Notes: generated from the sequence alone by a model not told the origin. Counted from the first letter of the stretch, positions 48,027 through 49,572 are shown. The stretch is 64,000 bases of DNA from a virus (IMGVR_UViG_3300011337_000669), one strand, 5' to 3'. A program made the numbers and translations.

Positions 48027-48455
48027 ATGCACGAAAGGTTAAAACGAATTATATTCAAAAAATTAGACCAAGATTTGGGTCATGCTGAAATCATTGTGTA
48101 TGATAATAAATCCATTTGGTTCATCGATCGTGCGAATGAGTTTTGGTATTTGGAACTAAGAAGTTCAGGGACTCTATGGTGGAGATACTCATTCTTCCGC
48201 GATTTTTTTCCGTTGTTTGGTTTGGAACAGCTAGAATATGAACCCGTTATAGCGGAATGGGTGGAAGAGGTACTCAAACGAGAGGTGTCTTCAATCTTCA
48301 AACGAGGATTTAATCGCTGCGACTTGGTGGAAGATGTCCTCAAACGCGGAATGTCTTCAACATACCTCTACCAGTATCAAAGGGTTTCTTCAACAGCTGC
48401 TGGTCGTACGAGTCTTTGTGTTCAGGTGGAAGAGGTTCTCAATAAAAAATTATAA
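48027..48455 (+). CDS. Array-bearing paralogue 1 (conserved ~78 aa domain plus VEEVLKRGVSST repeats)
   Basis: Near-identical N-terminus to 48461 and 48928; 3' end runs through the repeat/spacer units. Confidence 0.75.
   Translation: MHERLKRIIFKKLDQDLGHAEIIVYDNKSIWFIDRANEFWYLELRSSGTLWWRYSFFRDFFPLFGLEQLEYEPVIAEWVEEVLKREVSSIFKRGFNRCDLVEDVLKRGMSSTYLYQYQRVSSTAAGRTSLCVQVEEVLNKKL
48260..48442. CRISPR. CRISPR-like mini-array 1 (two full repeats, one partial, terminal half repeat)
   Basis: 36-nt repeats at 48260 and 48326, 30-nt spacers 48296-48325 and 48395-48424, 33-nt deletion unit 48362-48394; no cas genes in window. Confidence 0.5.
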
Positions 48456-48460
48456 TATAT

Positions 48461-48817
48461 ATGCACGAAAGGTTAAAACAAATTATCTTCAAAAAGTTAG
48501 ACCAAGATTTGGGTCAGGCTGAAATCATTGTGGACGATAATAAATCCATTTGGTTCATCGATCGTGCGAATAAGTTTTGGTATTTGGAACTAAGAAGTTC
48601 AGGGACTCTATGGTGGAGATACTCATTCTTCCGTGATTTTTTTCCGTTGTTTGGCATGGAACGGCTAGAATATGAACCCGTTATAGCGGAATGGGTGGAA
48701 GAGGTACTCAAACGCGGGGTGTCTTCAACGGCCCCCTTCACGCATTCGAGGCACGATTTGGTGGAAGAGGTACTCAAACGCGGGGTGTCTTCAACTCGGA
48801 TGATTTTCGAATGCTGA
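48461..48817 (+). CDS. Array-bearing paralogue 2 (stop codon lies inside spacer 2)
   Basis: Same N-terminal domain; TGA at 48815-48817 within spacer 48796-48825. Confidence 0.7.
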   Translation: MHERLKQIIFKKLDQDLGQAEIIVDDNKSIWFIDRANKFWYLELRSSGTLWWRYSFFRDFFPLFGMERLEYEPVIAEWVEEVLKRGVSSTAPFTHSRHDLVEEVLKRGVSSTRMIFEC

Positions 48818-48909
48818 CGACGGGAGGTGGAAGAGGTACTCAAACGCGGGGTGTCTTCAACAGAAGCAACACGACTGGCTTACATGACCGAGGTGGAAGA
48901 GGTTCTCAA
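48694..48909. CRISPR. CRISPR-like mini-array 2 (three identical 36-nt repeats, three 30-nt spacers, terminal half repeat)
   Basis: GGTGGAAGAGGTACTCAAACGCGGGGTGTCTTCAAC at 48694, 48760, 48826; unique spacers of exactly 30 nt. Confidence 0.6.
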
Positions 48910-48927
48910 TAAAAAATTATAATATAT

Positions 48928-49572
48928 ATGCACGAAAGATTAAAACGAATTATTTTCAAAAAGTTAGACCAAGATTTAGGTCATGCTGAAATCATTGTGG
49001 ACGATAATAAATCCATTTGGTTCATCGATCGTGCAAATAAGTATTGGTATTTGGAACTAAGAAGTTCAGGGACTCTATGGTGGAGATATTCATTTTTCAA
49101 CAATTTTTTTCCATTATTTGGTATGGAACGGAAAGAATATGAACCCGTTATTGCGGGATGGGTCGAAGAGGTCCTCAAACGCGGGGTATCTTCAACGAAA
49201 AGTGCAAACCATCGAGTGCTACTCCCGGTGGAAGAGGTACTCAAACGCGGAGTGTCTTCAACAGAGTTCAATGATGGAGTACAGTCGGTTGGGGTGGAAA
49301 AGGTTTTCAAACGCGAGGTGTCTTCAACTCTACAAAGCAAAATCGCCTACCAGAATCAGGTGGAAGAGGTTCTCAAACGCGGAGTGTCTTCAACTTTCGA
49401 ATCAAAAACATCCGCAATATCTTTAGTAGAAAAAGTACTTAACAATGAAAGTATCCCTACAAATTCCAAAGAACTTTTACCATTCGAAGTAGAAAAAGTT
49501 CTGTCTCTCAAAGCTGGTGTCAGAGAATGTAAAATGAAAATAAAAAAAATTTTCAAAAAAATAATAAGTTAA
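48928..49572 (+). CDS. Array-bearing paralogue 3
   Basis: Same N-terminal domain; four good and two degenerate VE(E/K)V(L/F) units. Confidence 0.75.
   Translation: MHERLKRIIFKKLDQDLGHAEIIVDDNKSIWFIDRANKYWYLELRSSGTLWWRYSFFNNFFPLFGMERKEYEPVIAGWVEEVLKRGVSSTKSANHRVLLPVEEVLKRGVSSTEFNDGVQSVGVEKVFKREVSSTLQSKIAYQNQVEEVLKRGVSSTFESKTSAISLVEKVLNNESIPTNSKELLPFEVEKVLSLKAGVRECKMKIKKIFKKIIS
49161..49460. CRISPR. CRISPR-like mini-array 3 (four repeats, four 30-nt spacers, degenerate distal repeat)
   Basis: Repeats at 49161, 49227, 49293, 49359 and degenerate 49425; exact 66-nt period. Confidence 0.55.

Follow-up and report, generated by a model that had tools for sequence, protein, structure and literature searches.

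The 3' parts of three adjacent paralogous genes in an uncultured freshwater phage have the organisation of CRISPR arrays, with spacers that can be traced to bacterial housekeeping genes, and at the same time form a reading frame under selection. The DNA analysed, called the window here, is one strand of 64,000 nucleotides from the viral sequence IMGVR_UViG_3300011337_000669. We consider it probable that these are phage genes with working CRISPR-type arrays as their 3' parts, that a host integrase supplied in trans acts on them, and that selection keeps the frame. The broader proposal, that widespread phage genes build and vary a protein by CRISPR-type integration of host DNA as in-frame 22-codon units that selection retains, is offered more tentatively.

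All three genes lie on the + strand, and each consists of a conserved 77-aa N-domain followed by 66-nt units, in which a 36-nt repeat encoding VEEVLKRGVSST is joined to an unrelated 30-nt spacer. An initial annotation of the window had described a 66-nt period in frame with three paralogous ORFs that have a domain in common, and this description was correct. Paralog 1 (48027..48455, 142 aa; N-domain 48027-48259) has repeats at 48260 and 48326, then a 33-nt remnant unit inside the gene, a 30-nt spacer (48395-48424) and a truncated terminal repeat that starts at 48425 and ends with VEEVLNKKL and the stop codon. Paralog 3 (48928..49572, 214 aa; N-domain 48928-49160) has repeats at 49161, 49227, 49293 and 49359, degenerate ones at 49425 and 49491, five 30-nt spacers and a basic C-terminal tail. 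An intrinsic-terminator-like hairpin with a T run (49571..49598, + strand) closes the three-gene block.

Paralog 2 (48461..48922; N-domain 48461-48693) contains array 2 (48694..48909), in which the repeats at 48694, 48760 and 48826 are identical at 36/36 positions, as first reported, and a truncated repeat follows at 48892. Its spacers occupy 48730..48759, 48796..48825 and 48862-48891 (30 nt). The ORF itself (48461-48817, 118 aa) is cut short by a TGA stop at 48815-48817 inside spacer 2. A perfect repeat comes directly after this spacer, and the array stays in frame beyond the TGA up to a TAA at 48920-48922, where it ends as gene 1 does. TGA serves regularly as a stop codon in this phage, at the end of 15 of 63 ORFs, and the TGA of gene 2 was also seen in DNA contigs of two sequencing runs (X1 and X2).

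The genome from which the window comes is that of a T4-like freshwater jumbo phage, and proteins of the window itself are recorded on a contig of 276,376 bases (276 kb). The GC content is ~33% overall and 28-39% across 2-kb windows. Genes for a T4-type capsid, portal and large terminase are present in the window together with eight tRNA genes, and the closest cultured capsid relatives, at 37-43% identity, are those of a Microcystis phage, Flavobacterium phages and Rhodothermus phage RM378. The neighbours of the array block encode a small membrane protein, an endonuclease VII/HNH-like protein, a HAD protein and a TonB-dependent receptor. The sequencing runs that carry the locus are riverine, freshwater and other aquatic metagenomes. 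Records of cultured or complete phages contain no member of the gene family. When the locus and array 2 were compared by BLAST with 50,697 phage records, the outcome was no match at all or chance matches at E 9, and an exact-sequence look-up of the gene 2 product returned no record.

Within the window, the 36-nt repeat has seven copies at three or fewer mismatches, all on the + strand, where none is expected; further degenerate or truncated copies lie at 48326, 48425, 48892, 49293, 49425 and 49491. Several properties noted at the outset held on re-examination: the spacers are 30 nt long and mutually unrelated, those of array 2 are GC-rich (60, 50 and 50% vs 33% in the window), and the repeats decay distally, the number of mismatches climbing with distance from the N-domain. 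The hairpin that had been attributed to the repeat did not hold up. Its folding was no better than that of shuffled sequence (z -0.8 for the + strand and -0.1 for the - strand), and the pairing differs in the diverged relative L006. The repeat had also been likened to those of Cas13b systems. For this comparison the 36+30 geometry and one GTTG-type end stand, while the paired GUUG/CAAC ends are absent, the ends of the phage repeat being GGUG...CAAC on the + strand and GUUG...CCACC on the - strand. Under permissive thresholds, Rfam returned no CRISPR repeat family; its matches were at chance level on the terminator, with none on the repeat.

The evidence that the 30-mers are captured DNA comes from their sources. 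Contigs of four public runs were aligned to the locus, and contigs from a freshwater RNA run (X20; 228-394 nt) and a river DNA run (X2) matched it only at 48729-48760 or only at 48796-48826, with non-phage sequence on both flanks. Each matched span corresponds to spacer 1 or spacer 2 of array 2 with one or two adjacent bases, without a mismatch over 32 nt (spacer 1) or 31 nt (spacer 2). Spacer 1 and its flanks translate as continuous MurQ (N-acetylmuramic acid 6-phosphate etherase) on the strand opposite to the spacer, so that the spacer is antisense to murQ; the assignment is given by NCBIfam (E 1e-9) and by solved MurQ structures (E 2e-6). Spacer 2 and its flanks match C-terminal processing peptidases of the S41 family (TIGR00225, E 0.0025) on the same strand, and the TGA of gene 2 arises because the phage reads this spacer one base out of the frame of the peptidase gene. 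The flanks of the peptidase protospacer occur as variants in two runs that differ at third codon positions, like alleles of a real gene. By our own estimate, the chance of a 31-mer match in the ~2.4 billion bases read is ~2e-6. The protospacer flanks have a GC content of 51-57%, vs 33% for the phage.

These exact matches inside continuous MurQ and peptidase ORFs support the core claim of the initial annotation, that the 30-nt segments are captured foreign DNA, and show that the 30-mers were copied from bacterial housekeeping genes in either orientation and regardless of frame. The traced protospacers account for two of the three spacers of array 2 and were found in assembled Logan contigs, of which 30-nt flanks beside the matches were seen. 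The source bacterium is presumably the host of the phage. In both traced protospacers the next bases are G and then A (n=2).

Other searches for spacer sources gave no matches. Exact scans of IMG/VR with four spacers of the window found none, the 24-nt core of a spacer with 70% GC was absent from the species genomes, and local BLAST of 62 spacers produced, outside the arrays and with one exception, nothing above noise in the window, the related loci or 398 kb of DNA from related phages. The suggestion that the spacers are guides against competing phages is unsupported, since no spacer source was found in the 398 kb of phage DNA or in phage collections, and the sources that were traced are bacterial housekeeping genes. 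The one exception to the noise in these BLAST searches is a deletion junction in loci L014 and L016.

To follow the arrays across phages, 30 DNA loci were fetched by the N-domain alone, so that the sample is unbiased with respect to open or closed arrays. Constant geometry, with 36-nt repeats and 30-nt spacers, was found in the 33 arrays of these 30 loci and in three further lineages. At the locus of the distant lineage L041 (28% GC), five repeats are identical at 36/36 positions, a sixth has three changes and a seventh is degenerate; the 30-nt spacers between them are unrelated to each other and have 33-60% GC. The units repeat every 66 nt, apart from a few periods of 60 or 69 nt, and no other length occurs. 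The 33 arrays hold 62 distinct spacers in 47 families, with a mean GC of 46.6%. GC at the three codon positions of the spacers is 0.51, 0.41 and 0.45, without a coding signature, and their GC3 of 0.45 compares with 0.24-0.31 in the phage genes. Apart from a modest excess of charged residues, the peptides that they encode resemble random translation.

The arrays grow from one end. Across the 30 loci the DNA of the N-domain is 91.5% identical while the adjoining spacers are unrelated, which rules out point mutation as the source of the spacers. Spacers that are common to several phages barely vary (one occurs in 70 copies with three variants); they are distal and keep their order between phages. 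Rare or singleton spacers, by contrast, adjoin the N-domain (index 0) in 37 of 54 occurrences. The loci L027 and L028 are 96-98% identical in the surrounding DNA, and one of them has exactly one 66-nt unit more than the other at the first repeat. The polarised gain of spacers that the initial annotation had proposed to look for is seen both in the proximal position of the rare spacers and in this one-unit difference. The aligned loci show that new units evidently arise beside the N-domain and that older units are common to phages in a fixed order, so that the 3' end of the N-domain stands in for a leader. One-ended growth, old spacers at the other end and a degenerate terminal repeat are the features of an array.

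The same DNA also behaves as coding sequence. A word-based search found 351 metagenomic proteins of this type, which belong to no Pfam family and whose lengths step by ~22 residues. A profile search of 1.84 billion representatives returned 440 clusters at E 0.001 or better, the clusters (~440) being counted at 50% identity; the 22-residue period holds across them and was the best in 30 of the 31 proteins with a clear signal. In the spacers, one of 423 in-frame codons is a stop, whereas the rate in the other five frames is 3.9% per codon (binomial P 9e-7). Stop depletion had been judged not significant from the spacers of the window; after pooling of 47 independent spacer families from 33 arrays it is highly significant, and protein-level selection, first put forward as plausible, is borne out by its strength.

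The repeat is conserved as a peptide. Its motif VExVLxxxVxxT is kept over the deep family through synonymous changes, and the lineages have their own versions of the repeat peptide (such as VEEVLNCKVNTT, VEDVLNRKVVST, VEGVLKGGVTTT or LESVLNCGVTTT). The Leu codon of the repeat, for example, is TTA in L006, whose N-domain is ~52% identical, and CTC in another lineage. In a comparison of five lineages the synonymous sites of the repeat drift like those of the N-domain, in which third-position changes are in excess, as coding sequence should show. Several paralogs with related repeats occur per genome, and paralogs with decayed arrays remain open frames. The depletion of stops, the fixed periods, the kept peptide and the open frames of decayed arrays show that selection acts on the protein or, at the least, on translation through the array.

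What the protein might do is little illuminated by homology. Pfam, PHROGs and the ESM Atlas gave no family for the array proteins. The AlphaFold model of the gene 3 product is confident for residues 1-55 only, a helix and four strands, and a fold search with this model gave only generic alpha+beta matches with Z of 6 or below. Small "MKFIITESK" proteins near L006 were considered as relatives of the N-domain and were dropped, as BLASTP gave no support. No neighbouring gene is conserved between lineages, and the genomic contexts differ.

An integrase was sought in the window and in related phages. The initial annotation had stated that no cas gene is in the window, and this holds for the part checked, as the 28 ORFs scanned with Pfam match no Cas family; none of the ORFs in the window exceeds 850 aa. 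PADLOC gave only methyltransferase models among the 25 matches listed of 56. Five fragments of related phages (28-142 kb, only 5-46% complete) gave no Cas1, Cas2 or Cas4. On the host side, a 27-position repeat pattern had no match in 185,579 species genomes, a pattern that a diverged host repeat would escape, and in none of these genomes does the repeat lie beside cas13b or cas9.

The closest known counterpart is the type VI-B array of Flavobacterium columnare, which has no cas1/cas2 and gains spacers through the II-C module of the same bacterium although the leaders and repeats of the two differ; both arrays have 36-bp repeats, self spacers are common in them, and a leader-distal GTTGT is common to their repeats (PMC8092290). 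The phage arrays resemble the VI-B array in the 36-bp repeat, the 30-nt spacer and the lack of cas1/cas2 alongside, as well as in growth at the leader end and transcription from leader to array, and many of the spacers there come from the bacterial chromosome (PMC8092290). At the leader-distal end, read on the reverse strand, the phage repeat has GTTGA and that of L006 GTTGT, compared with GTTGT in F. columnare (PMC8092290). The phage unit also agrees with the definition of the type VI-B unit, a 36-nt repeat and a 30-nt spacer in 66 nt (bioRxiv 10.1101/092577), and departs from VI-B repeats in having neither the complementary 5'-GUUG/CAAC-3' ends nor a defined fold with a poly-U loop. Unlike the F. 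columnare VI-B array, the phage arrays are carried by a phage, have the 3' end of a coding domain as their "leader", and are translated and kept open by selection; the peptide that their repeat encodes is conserved, the synonymous sites of the repeat drift, and neither an effector nor a matching host array was found for it.

The mini-arrays known from viruses do not code for protein, and most of their spacers are directed against rival viruses or serve to regulate cas genes of the host. The phage arrays are like these mini-arrays, solitary repeat units and RNA anti-CRISPRs in being short, viral and devoid of adaptation genes of their own (PMC10651486). Virus mini-arrays are presumed to use host Cas proteins (PMC10651486), and both mini-arrays and huge phages are mentioned in PMC8616872. 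The phage arrays depart from mini-arrays in that they form a reading frame and that their traced spacers derive from housekeeping genes of bacteria. Neo-CRISPR loci arise spontaneously by off-target Cas1-Cas2 integration, in which a non-canonical sequence gains a spacer and the flanking target is duplicated. The phage arrays differ from these in that they are no one-off, their architecture being conserved over hundreds of protein clusters with several paralogs per genome. A further parallel is the cyanobactin precursor PatE, a multi-core RiPP in which a conserved leading part is followed by hypervariable short peptides flanked by constant recognition stretches that are identical in DNA. We rejected a multi-core RiPP precursor here, as maturation enzymes are absent nearby and contexts differ between lineages; in addition, unlike in PatE, the variable parts are traceable foreign DNA in arbitrary frames.

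We hypothesize that a Cas1-Cas2-type integrase acts in trans on the 3' end of these genes and inserts units there. Such an enzyme is suggested because duplication of a 36-bp target, a 30-bp ruler and a fixed junction are the chemistry of Cas1-Cas2. Its likeliest source would be a type II-C module of the host, by analogy with the VI-B arrays without cas1/cas2 in Flavobacterium, and the captured DNA would be host DNA present in the infection. Selection would then purge the units that bring in stops or frameshifts, the translated protein or translation through the block being what matters. The perfect state of three repeats in gene 2, its two traceable spacers and its fresh TGA suggest that this gene grew most recently and is seen before selection has filtered it. 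Our best guess for the selected product is a protein whose length and near-random decapeptide inserts vary by capture; the main alternative function is a decoy or sink for the adaptation or effector machinery of the host. The initial annotation had offered two readings, borrowed host CRISPR machinery and spacer capture that diversifies a protein tail, and the latter fits better since the frame is clearly under selection. Against the hypothesis, neither the integrase nor a matching host array was found in the data searched, the protospacers have 51-57% GC vs 33% in the phage, and the repeat is without a significant or conserved hairpin. The synonymous drift of the repeat is also awkward, since a host integrase or effector must recognise the repeat.

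Alternatively, the phage itself might encode the machinery, either a diverged Cas1-like enzyme or an unrelated integrase, elsewhere in its ~276-kb genome, and this machinery would have evolved along with the gene family so as to diversify the protein. Repeat DNA that drifts as coding sequence suggests a partner travelling with the phage, and the conservation of the 36+30 geometry and the repeat peptide over ~440 clusters, the several paralogs with related repeats in one genome and the failure to find the repeat in any host among the 185,579 species genomes all point the same way. No neighbouring gene is conserved between lineages, however, and Cas1, Cas2 and Cas4 had no matches in up to 142 kb of related genomes. 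With the F. columnare precedent in mind, we regard a host integrase acting in trans as the probable writer and a phage-borne one as unlikely. Less likely still is that the arrays act as RNA, with crRNA-like units loading or jamming host Cas13b or Cas9, as decoys or redirected onto host genes, and with an open frame that is secondary and might serve to avoid transcriptional polarity on the downstream paralogs. The 66-nt unit does equal a mature VI-B crRNA, made of a 30-nt spacer and a 36-nt repeat (bioRxiv 10.1101/092577), and examples are known of phage-borne repeat mimics and mini-arrays acting on Cas proteins of the host (PMC10651486; bioRxiv 10.1101/2024.10.29.618823). One traced spacer is antisense to its source mRNA, but the second has the same sense as its own; array-bearing contigs of relatives occur in an RNA library, in which DNA carry-over is possible. 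A role as RNA is further at odds with a repeat that has neither paired GUUG/CAAC ends nor a significant or conserved fold and that drifts at synonymous sites while its peptide is kept, with the persistence of decayed arrays as ORFs, and with the strong depletion of stops.

The remaining possibility is that this is an ordinary protein tandem repeat, with hypervariable linkers produced by unit duplication and fast divergence and with bacterial matches that are artefact or coincidence. The in-frame period, the indels in multiples of three and the conserved repeat peptide are what such a protein would have, some spacers are indeed diverged copies of one another (11 synonymous and 15 non-synonymous changes), and the initial annotation had itself listed the largely synonymous variation of the repeats as counter-evidence to an array. 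We nevertheless consider this explanation very improbable. It would have to account for exact matches of 31-32 nt inside intact foreign ORFs, for which we estimate a chance of ~2e-6, for repeats that are identical at all synonymous sites yet flank unrelated 30-mers, for the foreign composition of the spacers and their random-like peptides, and for the polarised position of rare spacers. Duplication and divergence of whole units was rejected specifically, as most spacers are unrelated although they lie between synonymously identical repeats. Diversity-generating retroelements consist of a template repeat and a reverse transcriptase and make changes at adenines only. This mechanism was also rejected: the spacers differ at all positions and have external sources, and 398 kb of phage DNA contain no template copy.

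CRISPR arrays are regarded as non-coding, and repeats that lie inside genes are routinely discarded as false positives. We know of no described array that lies in a reading frame under selection, and the literature and databases searched contain no description of a translated CRISPR-type array. Phage mini-arrays, RNA anti-CRISPRs and acquisition in trans are known already; what appears to be new is that an array is fused to a reading frame which a large family conserves. Both rules of thumb fail for an array whose protospacers can be traced and which is at the same time a selected reading frame.

The size of the family (~440 clusters at 50% identity) allows this proposal to be tested at scale in existing metagenomes. 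If a host integrase does the writing, these phages offer it an insertion-tolerant target, which would bear on how phages interfere with adaptation; if the phage does the writing, the arrays would be a new way of generating protein diversity. In both cases, the hosts of a group of uncultured freshwater jumbo phages should be identifiable from the spacers. If the proposal is true, adaptation machinery would write protein-coding sequence in a natural system, and the phage genome would keep a record of past hosts.

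In both upstream paralogs of the tandem locus, the truncated last repeat together with the short gap that separates it from the ATG of the next gene measures exactly 36 nt (window 48425-48460 and 48892-48927), and the next paralog therefore begins where a spacer would begin.

In two related metagenomic loci (L014:4498-4600 and L016:563-665), the array is joined to the final codons of an endonuclease VII/HNH-like gene. The spacer at this junction contains 19 nt identical to window 50688-50706, and the fusion arose by a deletion at this short shared stretch. Lost in the deletion were the tail, the gene for the membrane protein, and the greater part of the endonuclease gene; the reading frame is still open across the fusion.

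Additional paralogs of the family defined by the N-domain (the conserved start of the three genes) are dispersed in related phage genomes, at G001:122257 (L049) and G003:96765, 97244 and 86253 (L055). One of these carries a sister version of the repeat in three well-preserved copies; in others, the arrays are decayed and the frames are still open. In certain contigs assembled from the public sequencing runs X1 and X2, the sole stretch shared with the window is a 34-nt N-domain core (SGTLWWRYSFF; window 49066-49099), and both flanks differ from the window. These contigs likely come from a paralog that has diverged, or from a relative, present in those samples.

Elsewhere, a long series of tightly packed ORFs runs along the plus strand (window 131-20122) and includes an NAD-dependent sugar epimerase/dehydratase (8104-9198). 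Together with a dTDP-4-dehydrorhamnose 3,5-epimerase encoded separately from this series (53369-53998), it suggests a phage sugar or glycan pathway. The phage also encodes a ClpB/ClpC-type double AAA+ chaperone of 691 aa (39043-41118). Two tandem repeats lie inside genes of the window: ORF 34416-35330 contains 1.9 copies of a 117-nt unit (34483-34700), and ORF 25423-26946 contains 4.1 copies of an 18-nt unit (26309-26382).

On the minus strand (44189-47934), the phage encodes a TonB-dependent-receptor-like outer-membrane protein of 850 aa with Plug, CarboxypepD_reg, and beta-barrel domains; the gene is overlapped by a 398-aa ORF without a Pfam family. Phages of the lytic type do not usually carry such a protein, and its presence hints at a Bacteroidota-like host.
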